64,000 nt of DNA from Eubacteriales bacterium (GTDB lineage Bacteria; Bacillota; Clostridia; Oscillospirales; CAG-382): assembly GCA_045600105.1 (NCBI GenBank), contig JAZRXG010000042.1:14236-78235 (forward strand), in the 5' to 3' direction. The position numbers and the translations under genes were made by a program. How positions within the stretch are numbered: position 1 is the first letter of the stretch; each line of letters starts with the position of its first letter. Positions 4,425-56,754 of this stretch are shown in pieces. The notes under the pieces were generated by a model. The model was not told the origin of the DNA and ran no database searches. It worked only from the letters and a program-made list of their open reading frames with translations.

Positions 4425-5462
4425 ATGAGTTACGGTTTCAAGGACGCTTTCCTTCCCGACGGCATCGTCGGAAGCGACGGCATCGGAGTCGGAAGGTTCA
4501 GAACGAACGACCCGACTGTATTCGGTCTTTTCAGGTCTTTCACCGAAAAAAAGGGCGGCTCCGAAGGCGTGGTCTATCCATACGAGCTCAACGTATTCAC
4601 GCTCTTCAGGCATAAAAAGTGCTTTTTCCGTCCGACGGACGTGATATACACGGCAGACGAAATAACGTCGTTCAAAGACGCGTCGAAAAAAGCGTGCTTT
4701 CTGTCGGTCGGTCTTTACGAGCTGTTCGTTTCGTGCCCGTCGTTCACCGTCGACACGTCGCTCGTCGGCAGCTCCGACGTCTCTTCCCTTGCCGAAAGGC
4801 TGTATTTCGTAATTCCCGCGGCAAAAAAACGGCTTGTCAAAAAAATCTCGTTCTTCACGTCTGGGCTCAGAAAATGCGGCGTGGTAACGTCCGACGGTAT
4901 GATACGCTTCATTGTGAACGGGGATGCCGAGGAATTTGAAAAATCGTCCGTTCCCGCCGAGCAGCCCGTTACTCTCGTATCCCACGAAAACGGCAGCTTC
5001 AACGCCGGCTGCTTTGACGCGTTCGGCGAATATCTCGCAAAACTCACGAGATACGTCTTCCCCGCCGAATTCAGGTCGAGATCCGTCTTTAGTGACAAAT
5101 TCACGTACAAGCTCGGCCGTCTTGCCGTATCGTCACGCATACCGTCAGACAAACGCCGCACTTTCGGCGGAGAAACGGGCGTGAATCACACGGGGTTCCA
5201 CGTTTCGGTCATCCCGCTTCATACGGTCAACGGCATATTTCCGAGCGACTACGCGTTTTCGCTGCTCTCCGCGCTGAGGAACGAAGAAACGCTCCACAAC
5301 TACTGCGTATTCAGCGCGTTCAGCGGCAGGCTTGAAGATTATGTAAACCGCCATCCCATTGAATCGGACAATGAAACGGCTGTACCCCGATCGGACGGCG
5401 GATACGTTGTGATCATATCCGACACGCCGACGGCGTACAGCCATATAGGACGAATTATCTGA
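4425..5462 (+). CDS. Hypothetical protein (345 aa)
   Basis: Long ORF starting 2 nt after the mtaB stop with a GAGG RBS. No family motif recognised. Confidence 0.65.
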   Translation: MSYGFKDAFLPDGIVGSDGIGVGRFRTNDPTVFGLFRSFTEKKGGSEGVVYPYELNVFTLFRHKKCFFRPTDVIYTADEITSFKDASKKACFLSVGLYELFVSCPSFTVDTSLVGSSDVSSLAERLYFVIPAAKKRLVKKISFFTSGLRKCGVVTSDGMIRFIVNGDAEEFEKSSVPAEQPVTLVSHENGSFNAGCFDAFGEYLAKLTRYVFPAEFRSRSVFSDKFTYKLGRLAVSSRIPSDKRRTFGGETGVNHTGFHVSVIPLHTVNGIFPSDYAFSLLSALRNEETLHNYCVFSAFSGRLEDYVNRHPIESDNETAVPRSDGGYVVIISDTPTAYSHIGRII

Positions 5463-5464
5463 GT

Positions 5465-6529
5465 TTAATATTTTATGCCGTTGAGGATCGAGTACATCTC
5501 ATCCCACTTTTCTTCCATATCGGCAACGAGTTTGAACTGCGTACGGGTCCGGACCAGATTGTGGTCCGGGCTTTTTATGCGGAAATAAACGTCGCCCTCG
5601 ATATAGTCGGTGAGGAATCTGACGCCGCATTCGAGAGTCATGAGCTTAGCGCCCCAGGGGAGAAGCTTGATCTCGTTTTCGGTGAGCGATCTGCCGCAGG
5701 CGGTAAGGAAGCCCTCGGCGTAGGTCTTGTAAAGAGACGGCACGAAGTTGACCTTGGAAAGGTCGCGTTCGTCTTCGGCGGCGCTGCTTGCGCCGAACCG
5801 GATGGAATCGCCGAAGTCGTTGACGGAAAGTCCGGGCATAACGGTGTCAAGGTCGATGACGCAGAGCGCTTTTCCCGTTTTTTCGTCAAGAAGGACATTG
5901 TTGAGCTTGGTATCGTTATGAGTGACGCGGAGAGGTATCTCGCCTTTGGCAAGGGCGTCAACGCAGACGTGAGCGTCGGCTTCGCGGTCAAGCGCGAACT
6001 TGATCTCATTGAGCACGTCCTTGACTCTGCCGCATTTGTCCGCTTCGATCGCCTTGCGGAATTTGCGGTATCTGTCGGGAGTGTTGTGAAAATCGACTAT
6101 CGTTTCGTGGAGCTTGGAAGCGTCAAAATCGGCAAGGCTGCGCTGGAACATACCGAATCCGTACGCGCTCTCGTAAAAATCGCTTTCTTTTTCGACTTTT
6201 TCAAGGCATACGCTGCCCGTTATGAAGTCGTAAATTCTCCAATAGCAGCCGTTTTCGTCGTTGTAGAAGTTCTTGCCGTCAACGGTTTTGATAACGGTCA
6301 TCGCCTCACGCGGGTCGTTCGCCTTGGAAGCGATGTGAGCGCATACGGCAGCCACGTTCTCCATGAGAAGGTCGGGACGCTTGAATATGTTGTGGTTGAT
6401 CTTCTGCAGAATGTACTTTCTGCCGTCGTCGCATACGACGAGATACGTTTCGTTGATATGTCCGTTGCCGTAGCGTTCGCAGCTTACGGGAGTCGACTCA
6501 AGGCGGAATTTGCTTAAAATTTCTTTCAT
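5465..6529 (-). CDS. nahK: N-acetylhexosamine 1-kinase-like (NahK/LnpB; APH phosphotransferase fold)
   Basis: GNGHINETY, YILQKIN, FHNTPDRY, RVTHNDTKLNN, IDLDTVMPG, DFGDSIRFGA, LECGVRFLTDY, HNLVRTRTQ follow Bifidobacterium NahK as I recall it. Confidence 0.8.
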   Translation of the reverse strand: MKEILSKFRLESTPVSCERYGNGHINETYLVVCDDGRKYILQKINHNIFKRPDLLMENVAAVCAHIASKANDPREAMTVIKTVDGKNFYNDENGCYWRIYDFITGSVCLEKVEKESDFYESAYGFGMFQRSLADFDASKLHETIVDFHNTPDRYRKFRKAIEADKCGRVKDVLNEIKFALDREADAHVCVDALAKGEIPLRVTHNDTKLNNVLLDEKTGKALCVIDLDTVMPGLSVNDFGDSIRFGASSAAEDERDLSKVNFVPSLYKTYAEGFLTACGRSLTENEIKLLPWGAKLMTLECGVRFLTDYIEGDVYFRIKSPDHNLVRTRTQFKLVADMEEKWDEMYSILNGIKY

Positions 6530-6533
6530 TTTT

Positions 6534-8234
6534 TTACCTCGTGATGATTTTTATAAGTTTATCGCAAAGCTTTTCGTAGTCGGGAACGGACACGGAAAGC
6601 ATTTTTTCTTTTTCAAGCACGGCTTCCTCAGTGAAGAACGTCGTGACGTCGCTCGTGGGCATCACGCAGGCGTAAACCTCGTTCATTTCTTCGTCCGTTG
6701 CTTTTTCTTTTGCCATGCAGATGAGTTCGTAAAGCTCGGACGCGAAGCGCATTGCCTTGTATCTCACCGAAAGGAGGGGCTTGCCGTTACGCGACGGATA
6801 GACGAAGTTGATGTCGCCCACCGGGAAATTGGCGTATTTGATGCTCGTTCTCGGGTCGTCGGTGAGAACGGTGTAGTTCCAGCGAAGGAATCCGTCAAAG
6901 CCCATGAACGCGGTCAGCACGGGCAGGAACAGCGTTTCGCAAAGCTCGCTTCTGACGAACGTGTTGGGATAATGCGGCCAGCAGCAGACGTACCAGAGGA
7001 AGCGCTTGCCTTCCATGCCGAAATAGGAACGTATCACGTCGTACTGAGAGCAGACGCCCGAAATGAACGGAACGAAGTCCGAAATGACGTCCTTGAACTC
7101 GGCGATGAATTCGGCGTGATTGATGGCGGTCTTGAAGCGGAAACGCGGCGCGTTTTTGTGAAGTCTGCCGACCGACCTGCGGAACGCTTCGACGTCACCG
7201 GGTTCATCGGCGGCGATACGCACGATGTCGATGAGCTTTTTGCGGACGAAGTATCTCTCAAGTGCTCTGACGTAGCAGTCGATATCGGACGCCTTGCTCA
7301 TGAATTTATAGGTCGAGGTCGCTTCGTCGTAGTATCTTATCCTTATTCCGTCGGGGTAACGCTTTGCGGGCTTGGGGAAAGCCGCGCCCGACCAGATATT
7401 GGCGAGTCCGTAAACGGAGATCTCGCTGTTGATGCCGTATCTGAAGCAGAGGTCGATGTAGCGCTGCATGCTCGTGTAATCGTAAACGAAACGGCCGTTT
7501 TTGCGTTTTGTGACCCTGATCATCGAATATTCGAACATATTCGCCTTTTCGAGGACGCTTATGCAGCTCTGACCAGACCAAGGGATCTCGGACGCGATGA
7601 CCGTGACGGCTTTCTGACCGAGGTCGGCAAGCGTCCTGACGTAGCCTTCAAGGACCGCGAAATGCTCGTCACTGAACATGGGCACCTCATGCTTGCGCGC
7701 GAGGTTGGACGAATGCTGCCACAGATCGAGGTAGTATCTGAAATCCTTTCCGTCGGGCAGCGTGACGTCGATTACGTCGAGCTTCACTTTGCTCTTCGAC
7801 CATTCGGCTTCGTCGCTGAACATATAGCTTGCGTAGGTGTTTATTTCGATATCCCCGCTCACGCTTTCGCCGTCGACGTCTATGTCTGCCCAAAGAGCGG
7901 CGGGCTTGTTCGCGGTAAGTTCGATAAATCTGTCTTCAAGCAGTATGTCGCATGCCGCGGGAAGTCCCGCGTCGTCGGGGATATATCCCTCGGGATAAAC
8001 GCTGACCTTATTTGCGCTCTTTATGTCGAGACGGTAAGACGTGCAGCTGCACACCTGACGGAAATAAAGCGTGCCGTCGGTGCGGATGACCGAGTCTTCG
8101 TCGGAAAGCGCGATTATCTGAAACGCCGCCTTGCGGTTTCTGACCGTTCTGACAACGTTTATCTCGCGTATCGAATCGAAATCGGTGTTTTCTCTGAGTT
8201 TGAAAAGGCAATCGGTAATTTTGATCTTCAGCAT
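6534..8234 (-). CDS. GH123-like beta-N-acetylgalactosaminidase (DUF4091 domain), no signal peptide
   Basis: LDLWQH, LGQKAVT, PWSGQ, FVYDYTSMQRYI, catalytic-type ADEP, WYVCC, GFDGFLRWNY and GD..FVYP motifs. Confidence 0.75.
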   Translation of the reverse strand: MLKIKITDCLFKLRENTDFDSIREINVVRTVRNRKAAFQIIALSDEDSVIRTDGTLYFRQVCSCTSYRLDIKSANKVSVYPEGYIPDDAGLPAACDILLEDRFIELTANKPAALWADIDVDGESVSGDIEINTYASYMFSDEAEWSKSKVKLDVIDVTLPDGKDFRYYLDLWQHSSNLARKHEVPMFSDEHFAVLEGYVRTLADLGQKAVTVIASEIPWSGQSCISVLEKANMFEYSMIRVTKRKNGRFVYDYTSMQRYIDLCFRYGINSEISVYGLANIWSGAAFPKPAKRYPDGIRIRYYDEATSTYKFMSKASDIDCYVRALERYFVRKKLIDIVRIAADEPGDVEAFRRSVGRLHKNAPRFRFKTAINHAEFIAEFKDVISDFVPFISGVCSQYDVIRSYFGMEGKRFLWYVCCWPHYPNTFVRSELCETLFLPVLTAFMGFDGFLRWNYTVLTDDPRTSIKYANFPVGDINFVYPSRNGKPLLSVRYKAMRFASELYELICMAKEKATDEEMNEVYACVMPTSDVTTFFTEEAVLEKEKMLSVSVPDYEKLCDKLIKIITR

Positions 8235-8237
8235 TTT

Positions 8238-9836
8238 TTACTCCTTACCGCGGTCCGCGATATACGCCTCCGCGCACTTTATTCCGTCCGACGCCGCCGA
8301 CATAATGCCGCCGGCATAACCGGCGCCTTCGCCTGCGGGGTACAGACCTTTTATTGAAGCTTGAAATGTATATTCGTCTCTCACGCACCTTACGGGGCAG
8401 GTACTGCGGCTTTCGACGCCGGTCAGCACCGCGTCGGAAGACGCGAATGACGGTATTTGTTTGTCCAAGAGACGCAGTCCATCGCGAAGCGTTTCGCACA
8501 CGAAGGGCGGCAGCAGCTCGTTCAGGTCGCTCCCCGTGACTCCGCGCGGATAGGTGGGTCTTACGTCGCCGAAGGATGTCGTCGCTTTTCCGCGAAGGAA
8601 ATCGCCGACGGTCTGCGCCGGAGCCTTGTACCCTCCCCCGCCGAGTTCGAACGCCTTCTTTTCGAGTTTTCTCTGAAATGAAACGCCGTCAAGCGGGCTG
8701 TCCCCGCCGATATCGGCTTTTTCAACGCTTACGAGAAGCGCCGAATTGGCGTTTTCGCCGTCGCGGGAATGATAGCTCATTCCGTTGGTGACAACGCTCC
8801 CCTCCTCGCTCGTCGCCGCCACGACGCTTCCGCCGGGGCACATGCAGAACGTGTAAAGCGCCCTGCCGTTCGGCGTATGAGCGACCGCCTTGTATTCGGC
8901 ATTCGGGAGTCCCGGTTCGTTTCTGAACTCGTGATAGCGGGCCTCGTTTATGGCTTTTTGCCTGTGTTCTATCCTCACGCCGACCGAAAACGGCTTCTGC
9001 TCCATTTTTATGCCCTTTGAGTAGAGCATTTCAAAGGTGTCGCGCGCGGAATGTCCGATGCAGAGGAAGACCGCGTCGGTCTCGAGCCTCTCGCTTCCGT
9101 TGACGCAAACGGCTTTCACGCCGTCGGCATCGGCTTCGATATCGGTGAGCTTACTCAAAAAGCGGAAAGTCCCGCCGAGCGATTTTATTCGTTCGCGCAG
9201 TGTTTTGATGACGTTGCGGAGCAGGTCGGTGCCGATATGCGGGTGCGAGAGATAAAGTATCTCGTCGGGTGCGCCCGACGCCACGAACTCCTCGAGCACG
9301 TAGGCGCATCTGTTGTCCCTGTCCTTGATGAGCGTCGTCAGCTTACCGTCCGAAAACGCGCCCGCGCCGCCCTCGCCGAACTGTATGTTGGACTCCGTGT
9401 CAAGCCTTCCCGACGCGTTGAAAAGCGCGACTTTTTCGGCTCTGGTGTCCATTTCGTCGCCGCGCTCCAAAATGATGGGCGAATACCCGCACCTTGCAAG
9501 CATCAGAGCACAGAATATACCCGCGGGGCCGAAGCCGACTACCACGGGACGCAGTCCCGTCTTTCGGGTGACGGTCGGAAAAACGTATTCTTTTTTTACG
9601 AAAGGATATATTATCTCGCCTTTTGCTTTCGCCGCGAACTTCTTTTCGTTCTTCAGCTCGACGTCGGCATTCACTATCCAGCGCAGCGTTTTTCCGCGTC
9701 TGGCGTCGAGCGACTTGGAACTCATCTTAAGCGACAGTACGTCGCCGTCGGTGCAGCCGAACACGTTTTTGACGGCGCAAAGCAGGTCTTTTTCATCAAA
9801 AGACGGAGCAAAAGCGAGATTTTTGACTCTTATCAT
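8238..9836 (-). CDS. Uncharacterised NAD(P)/FAD-dependent oxidoreductase (COG2509-like)
   Basis: VVVGFGPAG Rossmann motif, GEGGAGAFSDGKL, TFCMCPGG, PAGEGAGYAGGIMSAA. Confidence 0.85.
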   Translation of the reverse strand: MIRVKNLAFAPSFDEKDLLCAVKNVFGCTDGDVLSLKMSSKSLDARRGKTLRWIVNADVELKNEKKFAAKAKGEIIYPFVKKEYVFPTVTRKTGLRPVVVGFGPAGIFCALMLARCGYSPIILERGDEMDTRAEKVALFNASGRLDTESNIQFGEGGAGAFSDGKLTTLIKDRDNRCAYVLEEFVASGAPDEILYLSHPHIGTDLLRNVIKTLRERIKSLGGTFRFLSKLTDIEADADGVKAVCVNGSERLETDAVFLCIGHSARDTFEMLYSKGIKMEQKPFSVGVRIEHRQKAINEARYHEFRNEPGLPNAEYKAVAHTPNGRALYTFCMCPGGSVVAATSEEGSVVTNGMSYHSRDGENANSALLVSVEKADIGGDSPLDGVSFQRKLEKKAFELGGGGYKAPAQTVGDFLRGKATTSFGDVRPTYPRGVTGSDLNELLPPFVCETLRDGLRLLDKQIPSFASSDAVLTGVESRSTCPVRCVRDEYTFQASIKGLYPAGEGAGYAGGIMSAASDGIKCAEAYIADRGKE

Positions 9837-10675
9837 TGTTTGCTTATCTCGAAAGTGACGGGACGAACGCGGTTTTCGAGGCAGACGTGGTTTGCTTTGA
9901 CGTCGGACGCGGTTATGTCTCTGGATCTTTCGATCTTATGTCCGACCTTGAGCGGGTTGATCTCGTAAAGGATGGGGCCGCAGTAGCCTATCCCGTCGAG
10001 GCAGTCGAAAAGCTCGTTCCAGTCGATGCCGCCTTCGCCGGGGAGCCAATGGCGCTCGTCAACAAAGTTGTAGTCCGAAACGTGGGTGGTTATTATCTTG
10101 CTTCCGACGTTACGGATGAAATCGGGTATCTTTTCGCCGAGCAGATGGTTGGTGTCAAAGCAGACGCGGAGTCTGTCGTCGGCGGAAACGAGATCGAGAA
10201 GCTCCTTGCTGCGGTTGCCGAGGCAGGTCCTCGGGAGGTCTTCGACGGCGATGGTCGAGCCGAAGGAAGCCGCGTATCCGGCAAGCTCGGCAAGCGATTT
10301 TTTGGAGGCCGCGAGTCTCGCGGGTCTGTCGGGATCGGCAATGGGTTCGCCGCTCGCGTGGATGACGAACAGGTGAACGCCGCATTCGGACATCATACGT
10401 ATGAATTTTTTCTGATACTCAACGGCAAAAACGCGTTTCTCTTCATCCGTCGCGGAAACGTCGTAAAGCTCGAACGGGCCGAATCTGAGATGAAAGCTGT
10501 TGATGCGAAGTCCCGCTTCAGCCGCCTTGCGCGTTACTTTTTCGGCGTCGAATTCATCGAATTCCTTGTCACGCGGGGAAAGCTCGAGGCAGTCGATGCC
10601 GCTCTTTTTGAATTCGGGATAAGACGCGATGATATCGTCGCCGACGGGACGTGAATAGCCTGTTTCGCGTTTCAT
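9833..10675 (-). CDS. Sugar phosphate isomerase/epimerase (xylose-isomerase-like TIM barrel, AP_endonuc_2)
   Basis: IAVEDL, CFDTNHL, THVSD, RHWLPGEGGIDW and LYE metal-binding pattern. Confidence 0.82.
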   Translation of the reverse strand: MKRETGYSRPVGDDIIASYPEFKKSGIDCLELSPRDKEFDEFDAEKVTRKAAEAGLRINSFHLRFGPFELYDVSATDEEKRVFAVEYQKKFIRMMSECGVHLFVIHASGEPIADPDRPARLAASKKSLAELAGYAASFGSTIAVEDLPRTCLGNRSKELLDLVSADDRLRVCFDTNHLLGEKIPDFIRNVGSKIITTHVSDYNFVDERHWLPGEGGIDWNELFDCLDGIGYCGPILYEINPLKVGHKIERSRDITASDVKANHVCLENRVRPVTFEISKQ

Positions 10676-10772
10676 AATGGATCTCCTTATTTGTCATAAT
10701 TTACATTGCCATATTATCACAAGCGTGTCAAAAAATCAAGTAAAAAAGCAAAGCAAACGCACAAAAAGCAAA

Positions 10773-10798
10773 GCAGACCCGCAAAAGTGCGGGTCTGC
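10773..10798 (-). terminator. Intrinsic terminator of the thuA-SBP1 unit
   Basis: GCAGACCCGC/GCGGGTCTGC 10-bp stem followed on the minus strand by T-rich TTTGCTTTTT. Confidence 0.75.
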
Positions 10799-10811
10799 CG
10801 AAAAATTCAGT

Positions 10812-12377
10812 TTAGTCTTCCTGAAGCGATTTGAAGAGATCGAGAGTCTTGTTGAGGTCGCTTTCGAACGTGCCGAGCTTGCTCTGGAGGTGAGACTGGA
10901 TCGACGTGCTGCCGGCGGAACGGAGCTGGTTGTAATACTGGATGCAGTCGCCCCAGTTGAAGATGACGGAGATATCTACCAATCTGTTTCTGAATATGAT
11001 ATCGAGCATTTCGGGCGAGTCTTCGTCGTCAACGAGACGTTTGAGCTTGAGGGTGAGATCGTAGTAAAGCGCGGTCACGTTGTCGTAGTTGTAATGAGCC
11101 ATCGCCTCGAGGCAGAAGGTGATCTGCGGGATCTCCGCTTCGTTGATGGAAATGGGAATTGCCATGATGCCGAAGTGATAGGGGTTGACCATGGAAGCGT
11201 AATCTTCCTGACCCTCGGATACCATGGGCATGGGAACTATGCCGTAGCTGATATCGGCGTTTCTGAGTTTTTCGGAGTTGACGAGTCCGATATGTTCTGC
11301 ATAGAAAAGTGCCTGATTCTGATAGAAATGGTCGGACACCTTATGGTTGTTGTCATAATCGTTCCAACGGAAATAGTCTTCGATGAAGCAGGTAACGCTC
11401 TTGTCGGCAACGACGTCGAACACCTTGAGGAAGTTGTTGACGTTCTGCTCGTTGAGCATTGCGAACTGCGGGATATCGTTGTCGTCCTTGCTGATCTGAG
11501 CAAGTCCGCCGCCCATGATGAACATATAGGTGTCGAACGAAACACCGACAAGTCCCCAGAAGTCGTCGCCTTCGACGTTCATGATCCCGTCTCCGCCGGG
11601 ATGAGCGACTTCCTTCATCATTGCGTACATTTTGTCGATGTTCCATTCGCCGCTCTTTACGAGGTCGAACGGGTTATCGAGGCTGTACTGTTTGACGAGG
11701 TCTTTGTTGAAATAGAGGCATCTGGTGTACTGGTCGTCGGTGTAAAGGATATCACCCGAGATCATGTAAAGCGAATTCGCGATACTCATGTCTTTCTGAG
11801 TAACGGGATCCCACCATTCTTCGTCGAGTCTGAGATAGCTTTCTTCGCCGAGGCTGTAGAAATCGTAACAGAGACCTTCGGAGGTGAGAGGAGCGAGGAA
11901 GTTTGCGCCGCCGACGAGCACCTGATAGTCCGCGGTACCCGCTTCGTTATCGTTTCTGACCTTCTGAACGAAACGGTTGTAGCAGTCGTCGTCGCTGACG
12001 TTTTCGTTGATGATGGTGAAGCCGTATTCCTGCTGAAGCTTGTTGTTTCTTTCGGAAATGGCAATGATGACGGCATCGGCTTTTTCTTCGTCGAATTCTT
12101 CGGTATAGCCGATGATCTGCTCGTCATCGTAAAGCTGACCGGGAGCAAGAATGAGGAACTTGATGGTGTAGCCGCTGATGTTGAGTCCGGTGGGATCAAG
12201 TCCTTCGATGAGGGCTGTCGACGTCTCTTCGGACGTTTCGGGCTTGGATTCGCTCGCGGAGGACGTTTCGGAGTTCGTCTTGCTTGTTTCGTTGCCGTTT
12301 TCTTCGCCGCACGCGGTGACGAGCAGAGCGAGCATCATGATGAAAACAAGCAGTCCGGCAAGTAGTTTCTTTGACAT
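10812..12377 (-). CDS. Extracellular solute-binding lipoprotein (carbohydrate ABC type), SBP1
   Basis: Lipobox VTAC, acidic Ser/Thr/Glu linker, YFNKDL..Y..DNPFDLV..GEW, YGIVPMP. Start moved to MSKK on the AAAGGA RBS. Confidence 0.85.
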   Translation of the reverse strand: MSKKLLAGLLVFIMMLALLVTACGEENGNETSKTNSETSSASESKPETSEETSTALIEGLDPTGLNISGYTIKFLILAPGQLYDDEQIIGYTEEFDEEKADAVIIAISERNNKLQQEYGFTIINENVSDDDCYNRFVQKVRNDNEAGTADYQVLVGGANFLAPLTSEGLCYDFYSLGEESYLRLDEEWWDPVTQKDMSIANSLYMISGDILYTDDQYTRCLYFNKDLVKQYSLDNPFDLVKSGEWNIDKMYAMMKEVAHPGGDGIMNVEGDDFWGLVGVSFDTYMFIMGGGLAQISKDDNDIPQFAMLNEQNVNNFLKVFDVVADKSVTCFIEDYFRWNDYDNNHKVSDHFYQNQALFYAEHIGLVNSEKLRNADISYGIVPMPMVSEGQEDYASMVNPYHFGIMAIPISINEAEIPQITFCLEAMAHYNYDNVTALYYDLTLKLKRLVDDEDSPEMLDIIFRNRLVDISVIFNWGDCIQYYNQLRSAGSTSIQSHLQSKLGTFESDLNKTLDLFKSLQED

Positions 12378-12411
12378 GGCTGATTCCTTTCTGTGTGAAA
12401 TTTTTATTTTA

Positions 12412-13143
12412 TCATTCAAATGATTTCTTGGTGAGCATCGGGCACTCGTCGACCATCTTGAAGCCGAATTCGTTGGGAGCCGCCCAATAAACGGCGTTCT
12501 TTATGATACGCTGAACGTATTCGTTGTAATACGACGGGCAGGTCTCGTGACCGGGCTGGAAATAGAACACCTTGCCGGCTCCTCTGAGGAAGCAGCATCC
12601 GGTACGCATGATATAGCCGTCTTCGTACCATCCGCCGAACACGAGTGCGTCGGGCTGAGGAATGTAGAAGGGTTCGCTGTAAAGCTCTTCTTCGTCAAGA
12701 ACGAAATGGTCGGGGATGCCAGCGGCGATCGGATGGGTCGGAAGCATCGTCCACATGACTTCTTTCTGATTCCTGCCCCACGAAAGGTTGCCGGAGGTGC
12801 CGACGATGGTGTCGAACGGTTTGGATTTATGCGCGGAATGAAGCGCGATGAATCCCATTCCTTCGGAATAAACGCGTTTTCTGATCTTCGCGACAAGGGC
12901 GTCGTTCACTTCGTGGTGAGCCATGTGTCCCCACCAGATAAGGACGTCGGTCTTGTTCAGAAGCTCGTCGGGGAGTCCCTGCTCGGGATCGTCAAGGGCG
13001 GCAAGCGTGATATCAAGATCATCATTGACGCTGAGGAAATCCTTAATGAACGCGTGTATGCCGTTCGGATAAAGTTTTTTGACTTCTTCGTTTGTTTTTT
13101 CGTGTCTGAATTCGTTCCAGATAACTACGTTGAGCTTTTTCAT
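12412..13143 (-). CDS. thuA: ThuA-family (trehalose utilisation, GATase1-like) protein
   Basis: VVIWNEFRHE, YPNGIH, DVLIWWGHMAH, GFIALHSAH, FYFQPGHET. Start at MKKL on the GGAGG RBS. Confidence 0.85.
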   Translation of the reverse strand: MKKLNVVIWNEFRHEKTNEEVKKLYPNGIHAFIKDFLSVNDDLDITLAALDDPEQGLPDELLNKTDVLIWWGHMAHHEVNDALVAKIRKRVYSEGMGFIALHSAHKSKPFDTIVGTSGNLSWGRNQKEVMWTMLPTHPIAAGIPDHFVLDEEELYSEPFYIPQPDALVFGGWYEDGYIMRTGCCFLRGAGKVFYFQPGHETCPSYYNEYVQRIIKNAVYWAAPNEFGFKMVDECPMLTKKSFE

Positions 13144-13266: not shown

Positions 13267-14823
13267 TCAATGGTTCTTGAGTTCGTTATAGCTTTCGATG
13301 GTCGCTTCCATCGCGGCGTTGAACGCGTTCTCCTTGCTCTGGCAGAACGACACGACGCCCCTGTTCTTGTTGGAGCGGAGCTGGTTGTAATACTGGATGC
13401 AGTCAGCCCAGTTGAACATAACGGACATATCGACTATTCTGTTTCTGAATATGAGGTCGAGCATTTCGGGCGAATCCTCGTCGTCGATAAGGCGTTTGAG
13501 CTTGAGAGTAAGGTCGTAGTACACCGCGGTGACGTGCTCGTTGTCGTAACGTGCCATTGCCTCGAGGCAGAAGGTGATCTCGGGGATCTCTTCCGCGTTG
13601 ATGGTGATGGGGATCGCGACGGTGCCGAAGCCGTACGGATTGACGGTGGACGCGTAGTTATCCTGCTCGACGTTCATCTTTGGCATCGGGAGGATACCGT
13701 AGTTTATATCGGCTTCTCTCATCTTTTCGGAATTGACTTTTCCGACGATCTCGGGATAGAAGAGCGCCTGTCCGTTATAGAAATGAGCGTATATCTCGCT
13801 GCATCTCGAGTCGTTCCAGCGGTAATAGTCGCCGGTGAAGCAGGTGGCTTCGCGGTCGCTGACAATGTCGAACACCTTGAAGAAGTTGTTGACGTTCTGC
13901 TCGTCCATCATGGCAAAGCGCGGGACGTCGTTTTCGTCCTTGACGATCTGAGCGACGCCGCCGCCCATAATGAGCATATAGGTGTCGAACGAAACGCCGA
14001 CCATGCCCCACGTATCGTCACCCGCGACATCCATCTTTCCGTCTCCGCCGGGATGTGCCACGGCTTTCATCATCGTGTACATCTCGTCGAGCGTCCATTT
14101 GCCTTCGGCCACGAGTTCGAACGGATTCGCGAGATTGTATTCCTTGATAAGGTCCTTGTTGAAGAACAGACATCTCGTCTGGTTGTCGTCGGTGTAAAGG
14201 AGGTCGCCCGTTGCGAGATAGAGCGAGTTGACGATGGTCATATCCTTTTGGGTGACGGGATCCCACCATACCTCGTCGAGGCTGAGACGCGAGTTTTCGA
14301 GATCGTAGAAATCGTAGAACATGCCTTCGGCGGAAAGCGGAGCAAGGTAATAAGCGCCGCCAACTATCGCCTGATAATTGGCGATACCCGCCTCGTTATC
14401 GCTTCTTACGCGTATCGGGAAATCATCGGTCGAGGTAACGGATTCGGATTCGATCACAAAGCCGTATTCCTGCGTCATTTTGTTGTTTCGCTCAACGATG
14501 GCGGCTATCACGTCGTCGGCTTTGTCCTCGCCGGTGCTTTCGGTGTAGCCGATGATCTGCTCGTCGTCATACTGGATATTCGAAGCGAGCACGAGGAACC
14601 TCATGGCGTAGCCGTCGAGGTCAAGTCCCGCGGGATCAAGTCCGTCGATAAAGAGCTTCGACACTTCCTCCGAGCTTTCTTCGGCAGCGGATTCGGCACT
14701 TGACGCGTCGCCGGCTTTGCTCTCTTCTTTGCTGACGTCGCTGCCGCTTTCGCTGCAGGATGCAAGCATCACGGAAAAAGCAAGCACCAGGATAAGTAAA
14801 AACGCGATCGTTTTTGTTCTCAT
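13267..14823 (-). CDS. Extracellular solute-binding lipoprotein, SBP2 (close paralog of SBP1)
   Basis: Lipobox LASC. Long shared stretches with SBP1 (WWDPVTQKDM, AHPGGDG, GVSFDTYM, EQNVNNF, ITFCLEAMA). RBS spacing favours ATG at 14823. Confidence 0.85.
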   Translation of the reverse strand: MRTKTIAFLLILVLAFSVMLASCSESGSDVSKEESKAGDASSAESAAEESSEEVSKLFIDGLDPAGLDLDGYAMRFLVLASNIQYDDEQIIGYTESTGEDKADDVIAAIVERNNKMTQEYGFVIESESVTSTDDFPIRVRSDNEAGIANYQAIVGGAYYLAPLSAEGMFYDFYDLENSRLSLDEVWWDPVTQKDMTIVNSLYLATGDLLYTDDNQTRCLFFNKDLIKEYNLANPFELVAEGKWTLDEMYTMMKAVAHPGGDGKMDVAGDDTWGMVGVSFDTYMLIMGGGVAQIVKDENDVPRFAMMDEQNVNNFFKVFDIVSDREATCFTGDYYRWNDSRCSEIYAHFYNGQALFYPEIVGKVNSEKMREADINYGILPMPKMNVEQDNYASTVNPYGFGTVAIPITINAEEIPEITFCLEAMARYDNEHVTAVYYDLTLKLKRLIDDEDSPEMLDLIFRNRIVDMSVMFNWADCIQYYNQLRSNKNRGVVSFCQSKENAFNAAMEATIESYNELKNH

Positions 14824-14849
14824 TTTCATTTCTCCTTTTCGTTTTTCTT

Positions 14850-18755: not shown

Positions 18756-20549
18756 TTACGATTTTTCACGAAGCTTGGGGTCAAAGGCGTCGCGGAGTCC
18801 CTGACCAAGCAGGTTGAGTGAAAGAACGAGAAGGAATATGATGACCGCGGGGAGTATGAATAGGTATCCTCTGCCATCGATCGTCATCTGTCCGCGGTAG
18901 TTGGAAGCAAGCGAGCCGAGGCTGGGCATGGGGATGGAAACGCCGATGCCGAGATAGCTGAGGAAGCTTTCGGTGAATATCGCGGAGGGTATCTGCAGAG
19001 CCGCCGAAATGAAAATGACGGAAATGCAGTTGGGAAGCATGTGCTTGAATATTATCCAGCGTGCGGGAGCGTCGCAGGCCTTTGCGGCAAGGACGAATTC
19101 CTGCTCTCTGAGGGAAAGCACCTGACCTCTGACGAGGCGCGCCATGCCGACCCAGTAAAGGAGGGCGAACACGATGAGGATGCTCACGAGTCCGACGCCG
19201 CCGAGCTTGTCAACGACGGAGGAAAGAGGACCGTTCTGGAAAATATCCTTGAAAGCGACGGAAAGAAGGATGATTATGAGCGTGTCGGGAAGCGAATAGA
19301 TGATATCGACGATACGCATCATGACAAGGTCGACTTTTCCGCCGAAATAGCCGGAGATCGCGCCGTAAAGCACGCCGATGATAACGACGACGACCGCCGC
19401 GATTATACCGACGAGGAGGGATACACGCGTTCCGACGATGATCCTTATCGCATAGTCGCGTCCGAGCTCATCGGTGCCGAGTATATGCGGGAACACGCTC
19501 TTGGTCTCTTTGGTGAGAGACGCGGCGGCAGGAACGACAGCGTCGCCCTTTGCGTATTTGAAATCGTCGACGGGAGCTTTTTCGTTGCTCATATTTCCGT
19601 CGAAAGTGAGTCTGTATCTGTCGGGTTTGCTCTTGCTGTTGTATCTGTAATTGACGGAAGCGCCTTCGTCGGCGACGCCGTCACCGTCGGAATCGGCTGC
19701 CCAGACGGCATAAAGCGTGGTATCGGACGAAACCGCGAAGTTCTTTGCGATGACGTCTTCGCTGTAAGTATCGTAATTGGACGCGTCGATCACGGGAAGG
19801 TCTGACTTAAGAGACCAGCCGGTGAACACGGCGCCGTCTTTTTTGAAGTCACCCGTTTCGTTGCTCGGGGTGATCTTGTCGGTCGAAACGTATTCGAAGG
19901 TGTCTTCGGGGAGAGTTCCCGTGCCGCCGTTCAGATCGTAAGTGATCTTGTATCTGGGAACGAGAACGCTTTCCGCGGTATTGTTGAAAAGGTCCGCGCC
20001 GAAATCGGCTTTTCCGTCGCCGTTCTTGTCAACGCCCCATACGGCGTAAAGCTCGCAGGTCGAATCGGAGAACGTAAGCGGAGCGGTAACGAAGTATTCT
20101 TTGACTTCGTTCAGATATTCTTCGCTGTCGATGACGAGAAGTCCGTGATAATGAGTGATGTCGTCTTTTCCGAGCGACCAGCCCATAAACACGGCATCTT
20201 CTTCCATAAGGATCTTTTCACGCGGTGAATACTCGAACGGGCCGAGAAATTCGCCGGCGATACTGTCGCGGCTGCCGGAGCTCGTACTGTAATCGTACGG
20301 ATAGAAAAGCGGAACTATGAACGCCGTGAGCGTGAGGAACACGACGATTATGAGGCACGCCATGGAAAGCTTGTCCTTGCGGAGCCTGCGAAGGCTGTCC
20401 TTGAGGAAGCTCGTGCTTTCACGCATGTGGTCCTGCTGCGCTTTTTCCTCATCCGTGGCAAGCTCGAACTTGGAAAGATCGAGCTGCAGGCTGAACGGGT
20501 TCTTTTTCGGCATTTTGTCATTGGGTCTGTTGGAATTCATTTCAGACAT
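18756..20549 (-). CDS. oppC: Oligopeptide ABC transporter permease OppC with a ~230-aa extracellular InlB-B-repeat-like insert
   Basis: OppC N-terminus (SFLKDSLRRLRKDK), HILGTDELGRD, EFVLAAKACDA, HMLPN, ESFLSYLG. 597 aa versus about 300-350 for typical OppC. Confidence 0.88.
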   Translation of the reverse strand: MSEMNSNRPNDKMPKKNPFSLQLDLSKFELATDEEKAQQDHMRESTSFLKDSLRRLRKDKLSMACLIIVVFLTLTAFIVPLFYPYDYSTSSGSRDSIAGEFLGPFEYSPREKILMEEDAVFMGWSLGKDDITHYHGLLVIDSEEYLNEVKEYFVTAPLTFSDSTCELYAVWGVDKNGDGKADFGADLFNNTAESVLVPRYKITYDLNGGTGTLPEDTFEYVSTDKITPSNETGDFKKDGAVFTGWSLKSDLPVIDASNYDTYSEDVIAKNFAVSSDTTLYAVWAADSDGDGVADEGASVNYRYNSKSKPDRYRLTFDGNMSNEKAPVDDFKYAKGDAVVPAAASLTKETKSVFPHILGTDELGRDYAIRIIVGTRVSLLVGIIAAVVVVIIGVLYGAISGYFGGKVDLVMMRIVDIIYSLPDTLIIILLSVAFKDIFQNGPLSSVVDKLGGVGLVSILIVFALLYWVGMARLVRGQVLSLREQEFVLAAKACDAPARWIIFKHMLPNCISVIFISAALQIPSAIFTESFLSYLGIGVSIPMPSLGSLASNYRGQMTIDGRGYLFILPAVIIFLLVLSLNLLGQGLRDAFDPKLREKS

Positions 20550-20565
20550 TTTTCCGCCCTCCCGT

Positions 20566-21522
20566 TCACGAGAAATCCACACGGTGATCTATGACCTTGT
20601 AAAGCACGTCGCTTATAAGGTTCATGGCGAGCATAAGCACCGAAAGAAGCACGGTGGTGCCCATTATCATCGTGTAGTCGAGGTTTTTGATGGAATCTAT
20701 GAAATATCCGCCGATACCGGGGACCGAGAAAATGCTTTCAACGACGAAAGAACCGGTAACTATGTACGCGATCATCGGGCCCGCGTAGGAAATGACGGGG
20801 GCAAGCGAGTTGCGGAGCGCGTGCTTGAAGAGCACCTTTCTTTCGGGGACGCCCTTTGCTCTCGCGGTCCTGATATAGTCCTGACCGAGCGAATCGAGCA
20901 TGGAGGAACGCGTGAGACGGGTTATGTATGCCGCGGGATAGAGCGAAAGCGCGATAATGGGAAGAATGAGTCCCATAAACGAGCCTTCACCCGCGAGTAT
21001 GCTCTGTATCGAGCTGCCCATGGACGGAAAAACCCTCCATTTGACGGTGAGGGTCCAGAGCGCGATAACGCCGATAACGAACGACGGCACCGAAACGGAA
21101 GCGGTCGAAAGTATGAGTATGAGCTTGTCCTGCCATTTTGAGCGCTTGATGGCGGCAAGAGAGCCGAAGATGAGCCCGATTATGATGGCGAGGATCGCGG
21201 CGCTGAGACCTATGAACGCCGAAGTCGCAAAGCCCTGCATAACGAGGTCTATCACGTTGAGGCCTTTATAATAAATGGACTGACCGAAATCGAGTTTTAC
21301 CGCGTTTTTAAGATAAATAAGATACTGCGTGCCGAGCGGCTTATCGAGCCCGTATTTTGCGTTGAGGGCGTCCATCGTAGACTGAGGGATGGCCTTCTCG
21401 CCGACGAAGGGGCTGCCCGGGACGGCGTGCATGATGAAAAAGGTAACGGTGATTATGATGAAAAGGGTGAGCAGCGCAAGCCCGAGTCTTTTCAATATAT
21501 AAATCAACATTTTTTTATCCAT
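20566..21522 (-). CDS. oppB: Oligopeptide ABC transporter permease
   Basis: YILKRL, PGSPF, YGLDKPL..QY, DYIRTARAKG, HALRNSL, VESIFSVPGIG. Start chosen from the AAGGAG RBS. Confidence 0.92.
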   Translation of the reverse strand: MDKKMLIYILKRLGLALLTLFIIITVTFFIMHAVPGSPFVGEKAIPQSTMDALNAKYGLDKPLGTQYLIYLKNAVKLDFGQSIYYKGLNVIDLVMQGFATSAFIGLSAAILAIIIGLIFGSLAAIKRSKWQDKLILILSTASVSVPSFVIGVIALWTLTVKWRVFPSMGSSIQSILAGEGSFMGLILPIIALSLYPAAYITRLTRSSMLDSLGQDYIRTARAKGVPERKVLFKHALRNSLAPVISYAGPMIAYIVTGSFVVESIFSVPGIGGYFIDSIKNLDYTMIMGTTVLLSVLMLAMNLISDVLYKVIDHRVDFS

Positions 21523-54237: not shown

Positions 54238-56754
54238 TTATTCGTCTTCTTCGCAGTTCTTTCTGTCGCGGCTGCCGAGGGCGTCCTTGAACATGACCGT
54301 TCCGTTTTCGTCCTCGTCGAATGTGAATTCGGCGTGTGCGTGCCATCCGCCTCCGAGATTTTGCGGTTCATAGCGGCGGAAGAAACCGTCGTCCGTCGGG
54401 AAATAACCGTCCCCTTTTCCGCGGTATTCCGTAAGGACCCACTCGGCTTTGCTGCCGTCCCACAGCGGATGCGTGAAACGAACGATGCCGACACCGGGAG
54501 CGAACCAGTATTCGCATTTCCCCGCGCAGTAGTCCCAGCCGCCGACAAATTCAAAGCTTATATGGCGGCAGTCTTCAAAGACTCCGGCAGGCGTCGTCAC
54601 GCTTTCGCCGCCCGTGACGGTGAAATTCTTCGTGACGTCATCCCATCTGCCTTTCTTTTCGGCAAATGTATAGCCGTCGACCCATTCATCAGACCACAGG
54701 CAGCCCGCCGCGTCCTGCAGAAGCGTCATAAAGAACGAATAGATTACCTTATATCCGTCAACGCCCTTTATCGGTGTATCTTTCCATTCAAAGTCGTAAA
54801 CACGGTTGCACCACATTATTGTTTTTTCCGTTTTTTTCTCGATCACGTCGCGTTCGAAGAAATCCCATTTCCCGAGCACGTCCGTATCGGGGTTGAAAGC
54901 GGCATCGGTCGAGAAAATGCGGCGCATTACGGCATTTGCGATGGTCGTCTGCGTCTTCTGACGCTTGGTGCAGGCGAGCTCTTCGCAGCGCTTCATCACA
55001 TCGCTTACGTCACGCAGTTTTTCATCGTCGCCGTTCACCTCATAATACGTATCACGCATTTCGACGGATTTTCCTTCCCACGTGTCAACGTATCCGTTGA
55101 CAATGTCGTAAAAGCTGTTGTAAAGAGTCACGCATCCGTTTTCGCACCCCGTAACTTCAAAGAAGTTTTCTCTGTCCGAAATACGAATATCATTACCCTT
55201 ATGAGAGTACGACCAACTGTTCCCTGCCTCAAACGGCAGAAGTCCCTTGCCTCCGCGGATACGGTAATCGGAAAGCACCCATTCCGACGTTACACCGGCT
55301 ATCGTCACGGTTTGATAAACGATACCCGCTCCCGGGCAAAGAACCGTTTTGCAGTACGTCAGTCCGTACCTTTCGCCTTCACAGACAAAAACAGAGCAGT
55401 TTTCAAAATGTCCCGCCGGAGTATCGCAGACGGCGTTGTCCTCTTCATAGCGCAGCGCTGTTTTGCAGTCCGATGACGTTCTGACGTCGCCGACCTTCAT
55501 ATCATCATCGAGTATAATACTGTCGCACGCCGACATATTCCAGAAAACACAGCCGCTGCCTCCACAGAAACCGGGCTGATCGGCAAAGTACAGAGCGTTT
55601 CCGATACGTTTATAGCGTTCTCCCGTTGCAGTTATATAATCGTGTTCCTTTTCTCCGCCGTTTTCGATCAGATGGCTCGACACTTTTATTGCCGCGAGAG
55701 CATTGGCGTGATACACTTCCGTTCCGGGGACGATGTGCGTGACATTTTCAAACCATTCTATCGCTTCCGCGTACTCCTGCTTTTTGTAATACTCATAGCC
55801 GAGCCAGAACATAACGTAAGCAAGCGTTTTGGGGTATTTGTTCTCTCGGTAATACGGTATCTGGGTGTTTTTCATGAATTCGATTTTTTCGTCGCCGCGG
55901 TACTTTTCGTACTCCCGGCAGGCGACCGACTGCATAACGTCGTCGTTATGCCCTTCTTCGGCTGATTTCTTTATCCTTTCAAAGGTCTCGTCGTTCTTTT
56001 CGCTTTCCAGCCACCACCAGCCCATCAGCAGAGTGTCGGCAAGGAGCGAACTCTTTTCCTTTGAATCGTCGAGAGTTTCGACGCTTTGAAGCACGGAGCG
56101 GTATTCATCCTCAAATCCGGTCTTGTCGTTTTTGAATCTCCATCTTTTAAGCTCTTCGACCTGACGCATAACGCGTGAAACGAGCGATTCTTTTTCGTTG
56201 TATGTTTTTTCCACTATTCCATAACCCTTTCTTAATTGTTTTCTCCCCTCAGAAAGACGCCATTTGACAGTCCCTTTGGAAACGCCGAGAAGACGCGATA
56301 TCTCAGACACGGACTTGTCCTCGAAATAATGCAGTTTCACCGTTTCGCGCAGTTTCTCGCTCAGCGCCTCGACGCTCTCGTGAAGATCGGTATAGTCTTC
56401 GGCTGCAATTTCCGCTTTCCCGTCATCCTCCGAAAATTCTCCGAGCTTCTCGATAGAGATCGAAGGAATGGCGCTGCGATACCGTGTCATCAACGTTCTC
56501 GCGCTATTCTTTGCGATAGAGCTGACCCACGGACCGAATTTTGAGCCGTCACGAAGAGACGCCAGATTCATCCACGCGGACACGAAAGCGTCCTGCGACG
56601 CGTCCTCCGCCAAAAACGTATTCCCCGTTTCTCTGACGGATACGCCCATCACCGCGCGCTGATGACGGACAACAAGCTCCTCGTAGGCGGAATCGTCCCC
56701 GAGAAGTGTCAGTTCCACAAGTGTCTTATCGGTTTTGTCGACGTGGTTTTTCAT
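54238..56754 (-). CDS. ECF sigma-70 factor with ~660-aa C-terminal extension (TPR plus duplicated TPAGxF beta-type domain)
   Basis: Sigma2 (AYEELV.RH, AEDASQDAF..AW, FGPWV..IAKN) and sigma4 (LHYFED.SV.EIS..LGVSKGTVKWRL..GR) in aa 1-180. TPR-like WLGYEYYKKQEYAEAIEWFE. No TM segment seen. Confidence 0.85.
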   Translation of the reverse strand: MKNHVDKTDKTLVELTLLGDDSAYEELVVRHQRAVMGVSVRETGNTFLAEDASQDAFVSAWMNLASLRDGSKFGPWVSSIAKNSARTLMTRYRSAIPSISIEKLGEFSEDDGKAEIAAEDYTDLHESVEALSEKLRETVKLHYFEDKSVSEISRLLGVSKGTVKWRLSEGRKQLRKGYGIVEKTYNEKESLVSRVMRQVEELKRWRFKNDKTGFEDEYRSVLQSVETLDDSKEKSSLLADTLLMGWWWLESEKNDETFERIKKSAEEGHNDDVMQSVACREYEKYRGDEKIEFMKNTQIPYYRENKYPKTLAYVMFWLGYEYYKKQEYAEAIEWFENVTHIVPGTEVYHANALAAIKVSSHLIENGGEKEHDYITATGERYKRIGNALYFADQPGFCGGSGCVFWNMSACDSIILDDDMKVGDVRTSSDCKTALRYEEDNAVCDTPAGHFENCSVFVCEGERYGLTYCKTVLCPGAGIVYQTVTIAGVTSEWVLSDYRIRGGKGLLPFEAGNSWSYSHKGNDIRISDRENFFEVTGCENGCVTLYNSFYDIVNGYVDTWEGKSVEMRDTYYEVNGDDEKLRDVSDVMKRCEELACTKRQKTQTTIANAVMRRIFSTDAAFNPDTDVLGKWDFFERDVIEKKTEKTIMWCNRVYDFEWKDTPIKGVDGYKVIYSFFMTLLQDAAGCLWSDEWVDGYTFAEKKGRWDDVTKNFTVTGGESVTTPAGVFEDCRHISFEFVGGWDYCAGKCEYWFAPGVGIVRFTHPLWDGSKAEWVLTEYRGKGDGYFPTDDGFFRRYEPQNLGGGWHAHAEFTFDEDENGTVMFKDALGSRDRKNCEEDE

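Follow-up and report, generated by a model that had tools for sequence, protein, structure and literature searches.

The hydrolase and kinase genes

We analysed two adjacent minus-strand genes in a 64,000-nucleotide stretch (the window) of the genome of an Eubacteriales bacterium (assembly GCA_045600105.1, contig JAZRXG010000042.1, positions 14,236 to 78,235), encoding a hydrolase of glycoside hydrolase family 123 (GH123) and an N-acetylhexosamine (HexNAc) 1-kinase of the NahK type (Table 1). A preliminary description, made from the sequence alone, had placed the two open reading frames (ORFs) 4 nt apart, and both were recovered at those positions, each preceded by a ribosome-binding site. It had also assigned them to a tightly overlapping four-gene operon. 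The close spacing was confirmed, but only the junction between the triose-phosphate isomerase (TIM) barrel gene and the flavin adenine dinucleotide (FAD)-dependent oxidoreductase gene overlaps (4 nt), the junctions of the oxidoreductase with the hydrolase and of the hydrolase with the kinase being gaps of 3 and 4 nt, respectively. A promoter scan gave counts at chance level.

The hydrolase belongs to GH123. It matched the GH123_cat profile (PF13320) with an E-value of 9.8e-74 and 249 bits against a cut-off of 23.1, and its best solved relatives by sequence were BvGH123 (5L7V; E 1e-27) and CpNga123 (E 2e-16). The AlphaFold model (mean predicted local distance difference test score, pLDDT, 93.9) comprises an N-terminal beta-sandwich together with a (beta/alpha)8 barrel. 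When it was searched with Foldseek, the top 22 matches were all of GH123 type, the best being 5L7U (E 4e-39; template modelling score 0.73), and the enzymes of Groups 1 and 2, which release oligosaccharides, ranked lowest. The catalytic pair that the preliminary description had read from an ADEP motif is borne out as D343/E344, which align with D361/E362 of BvGH123 and are invariant in 56 of 56 homologues. Nine residues are conserved across the beta-N-acetylgalactosaminidase groups (Sumida et al., PMC11087588); their counterparts here, placed from the sequence alignment and the positions of motifs rather than by structural superposition, are D96, W115, D343, E344, Y415, G448, W452, Y479 and R491, all invariant in the 56 homologues except W115 (W, Y or F). 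W172, W219 and Q222, equally invariant, correspond to the exo-pocket residues W206, W253 and Q256 of BvGH123. W281 probably corresponds to BvGH123 W306, where the alignment has a gap, and F470 replaces BvGH123 W482, with F or W at that position in 53 of the 56 homologues. These features suggest an exo-acting enzyme that releases terminal beta-linked N-acetylgalactosamine (GalNAc). In comparison with the exo enzymes BvGH123, CpNga123 and NgaP (PMC11087588), the fold, the DE pair, the conserved structural residues and, by exact match, three of the five exo-type pocket residues are shared, whereas identity is 16-19% by structural alignment, the protein falls in a separate, uncharacterised clostridial subclade (884 homologues) and it has no signal peptide. 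The N-terminal hydropathy peak is 0.25 and a hydrophobic N-terminus was seen in 0 of 120 homologues, so that a secreted hydrolase was ruled out and the cytoplasmic location given in the preliminary description stands.

The kinase matched the bifidobacterial NahK structures (PDB 4OCU, 4WH1 and 4OCJ) at E ~1e-102 over its full length (residues 3-349), in agreement with the earlier assignment. The next family in this PDB search, the aminoglycoside phosphotransferases (APH), reached only E 0.14, which ruled out an identity as aminoglycoside phosphotransferase or choline kinase; the Pfam APH profile (PF01636) matches the ORF at E 6e-17. The GHIN lid, the THND206TKxNN211 motif and D226 are kept, and D206, N211 and D226 align with D208, N213 and D228 of Bifidobacterium longum NahK, which we take to be the catalytic aspartate and the magnesium ligands. 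The protein is thus predicted to phosphorylate N-acetylglucosamine (GlcNAc) or GalNAc at C1, with a sugar preference that is not readable from sequence: NahK of B. longum accepts both sugars, and BT4240 of Bacteroides thetaiotaomicron favours GalNAc about 275-fold (PMC11992087).

A second NahK paralogue, 42% identical, lies on contig C21 of the same genome (G000), and NahK-like kinases were found in 101 of 103 family genomes. As BT4240 is likewise paired with a hydrolase (PMC11992087), a NahK without the GH112 phosphorylase is nothing unusual. In three genomes of the genus (G003, G004 and G009), the GH123-adjacent kinase was the only NahK found. The genus also has a second NahK clade (L045-L050 and L053), located behind a gene of the aminoglycoside 3-N-acetyltransferase family (PF02522), which suggests a different substrate or a route of acetylation followed by phosphorylation.

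Table 1. Positions within the window of the hydrolase-kinase pair and the neighbouring features.
Feature	Position	Strand	Basis or remark
GH123 beta-N-acetylgalactosaminidase (predicted exo, cytoplasmic; clostridial subclade)	6534..8234	-	566 aa; PF13320, BvGH123 match, AlphaFold/Foldseek
Catalytic D343/E344 codons (DE motif)	7203..7208	-	alignment with BvGH123 D361/E362
NahK-type N-acetylhexosamine 1-kinase	5465..6529	-	354 aa; PDB 4OCU/4WH1/4OCJ, E ~1e-102
FAD-dependent oxidoreductase	8238..9836	-	PF21688; probably co-transcribed, outside the conserved unit
Xylose-isomerase-like TIM barrel, first gene of the local transcription unit	9833..10675	-	PF01261
Terminator-like hairpin between the solute-binding protein gene and the four-gene unit	10772..10799	-	12-bp stem, T-rich tail; consensus match only
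Sugar ABC solute-binding lipoprotein, candidate uptake link	10812..12419	-	PF01547

Amino-sugar supply and the fate of HexNAc-1-phosphate

The genes for de novo synthesis of uridine diphosphate (UDP)-GlcNAc appear to be missing from the genus. Searches whose controls matched detected glmS, glmM and glmU in none of the 12 genus genomes, and none of the three exceeded the cut-off in the 29 genomes of genus g4, whereas glmS and glmM are retained in the family's other genera; full-length GlmU was found in 0 of 103 family genomes. These searches were run at strict thresholds (1e-40, 1e-60), the only ones applied to the other 11 genus genomes; in G000, tblastn and phmmer detected none of the three genes at loose thresholds either. 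This genome has a single phosphohexomutase, of the long phosphoglucomutase (PGM) type, and murA, murC-G, mraY and ftsW are present. With glmS, glmM and glmU absent and the mur genes kept, the simplest reading is that the wall needs salvaged HexNAc and that this kinase is a main entry. A supply of UDP-GlcNAc is the likely purpose of the pair, which the preliminary description missed.

That description had proposed phosphorylation at C1 in preference to the phosphotransferase system (PTS) and GalNAc-6-phosphate, and the searches of G000 agree with it: TIGR01417 for PTS enzyme I gave only partial matches below the cut-off, in an 897-aa frame, and agaS, kbaZ and agaVBCD had no matches. Neither type of GalT was detected in this genome (no match to TIGR01239, whose control matched, or to E. 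coli GalT). GH112 (PF09508) gave no match in G000 and eukaryote-type UDPGP none as the next step, the positive controls of both searches being equally silent. The annotated ORFs of the window, a few short ORFs having been left unscanned, include no lnpA, galT or galE, as had been stated, and a GalE is encoded elsewhere, on contig C8. GalE was present in 12 of 12 genus genomes, with Cys at the position of E. coli Tyr299 in all 11 in which the motif was read; Cys at this position marks enzymes accepting UDP-GalNAc (PMC6668579).

A candidate for the step between kinase and epimerase is a nucleotidyltransferase of 297 aa on contig C14 (G000:C14:6703-7596, equal to L086:1267-2160), which matched PDB 3PNN at E 1e-77 and also Bacteroidota-rich clusters; 3PNN-type homologues number at least 7999. 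The type occurs in all 12 genus genomes and stands directly before NahK, or is fused to it, in 23 genomes of the family; one such fusion, of 661 aa, is L094:565-2550 (G057). Genera g6, g8 and g9 are without it and carry instead a protein consisting of the GlmU N-domain only (the uridylyltransferase half), a complementary distribution that would be expected if both do the same job. In g15, neither was found at the thresholds used.

On this basis, we consider it moderately probable that the pair serves, in the cytoplasm, to salvage GalNAc for the synthesis of UDP-sugars. Small glycans with a terminal beta-GalNAc would enter the cell, and the GH123 enzyme would free GalNAc by substrate-assisted catalysis. 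The kinase would then yield GalNAc-1-phosphate and, as a general HexNAc 1-kinase, probably GlcNAc-1-phosphate as well. To judge from gene context, the C14 nucleotidyltransferase may convert GalNAc-1-phosphate to UDP-GalNAc, and the Cys-gated GalE, to judge from that residue, may convert UDP-GalNAc to UDP-GlcNAc, which would be used by MurA and MurG for peptidoglycan; any surplus would perhaps be catabolised via NagA and NagB. Because glmS, glmM and glmU are missing, peptidoglycan precursors probably come mainly from this salvage. A wider proposal, which we put forward tentatively, is obligate amino-sugar auxotrophy of the genus and of sister genera, g4 for instance: they would make all their peptidoglycan from HexNAc salvaged via NahK and a 3PNN-type uridylyltransferase replacing GlmU, the GH123-NahK pair opening beta-GalNAc as a source.

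Similar lifestyles have been described in other phyla. Capnocytophaga canimorsus, without GlmM and GlmU, uses the monofunctional uridylyltransferase GlmUCc (PMC4358021), and Akkermansia muciniphila, without GlmS, grows on GalNAc, for which GalE has been proposed (PMC5902328). De novo UDP-GlcNAc genes missing, peptidoglycan genes kept and a stand-alone uridylyltransferase, here a putative one, are common to these bacteria and the present genus, and the direction of host GlcNAc or GalNAc to the cell wall, experimentally shown there, is predicted here from assembled genomes. In B. thetaiotaomicron BT4240-BT4243, a GalNAc 1-kinase of the NahK family is clustered with GalNAc-releasing hydrolases (GH109 and GH2; PMC11992087), and C1 phosphorylation follows hydrolytic release without GH112, as is predicted here. 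That system employs an alpha-N-acetylgalactosaminidase in a SusC/D polysaccharide utilization locus, unlike the cytoplasmic GH123, a predicted beta-N-acetylgalactosaminidase, of a Gram-positive-type clostridium without a linked transporter. The LnpABCD system of B. longum (GH112, NahK, GalT and GalE; PMC8106489) shares the close NahK homologue and has its GalE matched by the Cys-gated enzyme in the genome. In contrast to that system, neither GH112 (with its silent control) nor GalT was found here, the sugar would be freed by hydrolysis, the genes are scattered and a probable pyrophosphorylase takes the place of GalT. With no GalT, no cluster with an ABC (ATP-binding cassette) transporter and galE on another contig, the pair lies outside the lnpABCD pathway.

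The pair itself is thus ordinary: its families are known, its design has already been shown in B. thetaiotaomicron and its gene order is specific to the genus. What deserves further attention is the loss of the de novo UDP-GlcNAc genes across the genus. The pair is the entry to a prediction: an entire genus of uncultured Clostridia seems to have no de novo synthesis of UDP-GlcNAc and would depend on GlcNAc or GalNAc for growth, a point relevant to its cultivation and to its reliance on host glycans. In addition, two uncharacterised protein groups, the cytoplasmic clostridial GH123 subclade and the 3PNN-type nucleotidyltransferases, become open to assay. If true, the auxotrophy would mean that a large clostridial group shares the Capnocytophaga and Akkermansia lifestyle, would give a function to a protein family with thousands of members and would point to a supplement for culture media. 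In an incomplete literature search, neither a GH123-NahK pair nor amino-sugar auxotrophy in this clostridial group was the subject of any paper, and the search retrieved nothing specific on the function of 3PNN, NahK Asp208 or GalNAc-1-phosphate salvage in gut bacteria.

Conservation of the pair and alternative readings

The kinase gene lies directly downstream of GH123 in all nine genomes of the genus that hold this GH123 (hydrolase identity 50-80%), with gaps that stay short (~2-45 nt). The genus, which takes in 'Clostridiales bacterium UBA1206', belongs to a family that we take to be CAG-272. Upstream, the oxidoreductase gene was found in six of the nine and the TIM barrel gene was syntenic in five, and three have instead the end of a cell-division cluster, where ftsZ may or may not be accompanied by tcdA. 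Because the upstream genes differ in this way, the conserved unit is the GH123-NahK pair, and the four genes as a sugar operon, as the preliminary description had them, were rejected as a conserved unit.

The same description had proposed a search for the gene pair in other Clostridia. The pairing holds in every genus genome with this GH123 and is nearly absent outside the genus. No NahK was found beside the 14 close GH123 genes of two other genera (12 of them assessable downstream), in 46 metagenome loci whose flanks extend for 1 kb or more in each direction or in four further loci. The single further case among 30 order-level GH123 genes (L243:3-4007, genome G215) belongs to another subclade and another family, has NahK 75 nt downstream and represents an independent origin, borderline above chance (about 5%). 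A broadly conserved pairing was accordingly rejected, direct pairing being rare outside the genus. At four loci (L060, L152, L160 and L177), GH123 stands within ~4 kb of an anomeric kinase and a UDP-transferase, so that a functional link between GH123 and anomeric kinases recurs weakly across loci and gene order does not. At L060:1505-8746, GH123 ends an operon of PGM, GHMP kinase and eukaryote-type UDPGP, the same logic with another kinase. The L243 pair has a divergent gene that by eye is probably an AraC-type regulator.

Several observations weigh against the salvage reading. The near absence of the pairing outside the genus is one; moreover, the GH123-adjacent kinases form one clade (support 100/99) and therefore point to a single origin of the pair in the genus, and in G006 the kinase occupies the same locus without the hydrolase. 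The genes for the nucleotidyltransferase and GalE are unlinked to the pair, as is any transporter; with no sugar permease beside the pair, the glycan import assumed in the preliminary description is not supported. HexNAc could also enter by other ways, namely a ROK kinase-NagA pair and an 826-aa fusion of a GlmU-N-like transferase with a GalK-like kinase (G000:C15:18325-20805; L087). The hydrolase is distant from all characterised GH123 enzymes, as noted above. Furthermore, G000 is a 95.7% complete metagenome-assembled genome, all genomes compared are of this kind, and in C. canimorsus GlmS activity existed though BLAST had missed it (PMC4358021).

The strongest competing explanation, which we nevertheless judge unlikely, is that the two genes are incidental neighbours: GH123 would have landed once upstream of a housekeeping HexNAc 1-kinase and been carried along by vertical synteny without selection for co-expression, though the two could still serve one pathway. 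The single kinase clade, the locus in G006, the rarity of the pairing elsewhere with its one borderline exception, and a downstream comEC-holA-rnmV-mtaB synteny that is conserved as well as the pair itself would all fit. Yet the pair outlasts the exchange of everything upstream, the intergenic gaps remain short, and GH123 genes at the four loci above stand near anomeric-kinase and UDP-transferase genes.

Rather improbable is a mainly catabolic, LnpBCD-like role, compatible as such with salvage, in which GalNAc-1-phosphate would pass via UDP-sugars to GlcNAc-1-phosphate, GlcNAc-6-phosphate and fructose-6-phosphate for energy. G000 does encode a nagA-nagB pair, two further NagA-like proteins and a second NagB. 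With no tagatose (AgaS/KbaZ) route found, GalNAc catabolism would need C1 phosphorylation, and BT4240 is needed for growth on GalNAc (PMC11992087). However, GalT was not found, there is no GlmM and the single mutase, on contig C18, may or may not act on HexNAc, and the loss of glmS, glmM and glmU makes the anabolic demand obligatory. Very improbable is a hydrolase of different specificity, one that releases disaccharides or acts on beta-GlcNAc or on a surface glycan of the cell itself, so that the pair would recycle HexNAc of another origin. In favour of this stand a subclade in which no member is characterised, the existence of oligosaccharide-releasing and HexNAc-ase groups among GH123-type enzymes (PMC11087588) and the replacement of a pocket tryptophan by F470. 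Against it, the exo enzymes BvGH123 and CpNga123 are the closest solved relatives both in sequence and in fold, the three invariant pocket residues match and the lowest scores are those of Groups 1 and 2.

Neighbouring genes and further observations

The solute-binding lipoprotein gene upstream of the four-gene unit is syntenic in five of nine genus genomes, has no sugar permease next to it and is one of ~25 paralogues in G000. These paralogues (including window 10812-12419 and 13267-14829) are scattered in the genome, most of them standing without permeases, and only 14 ABC permease matches were obtained. On the other side of the pair, an unrelated ORF of the plus strand (window 4425-5462; 345 aa, no Pfam match), kept after mtaB genus-wide, runs towards the kinase stop.

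The C15 fusion adjoins genes resembling a surface-polysaccharide locus (not tool-annotated), and separate genes similar to its halves lie near GH123 in L152 and L177. The genus has two tandem ftsZ copies (L032, L033, L034 and L240; G000:C49), and the cell-division cluster is followed in some of its genomes by the hydrolase-kinase pair or by NahK only. Elsewhere in the window, an OppC permease (18756-20582) has a Listeria-Bacteroides repeat domain inserted in it (PF09479, scoring at the cut-off), and a protein of 838 aa (54238-56754) has an extracytoplasmic function (ECF) sigma-70 N-terminus fused to tetratricopeptide repeat (TPR) and DUF3108-like regions.

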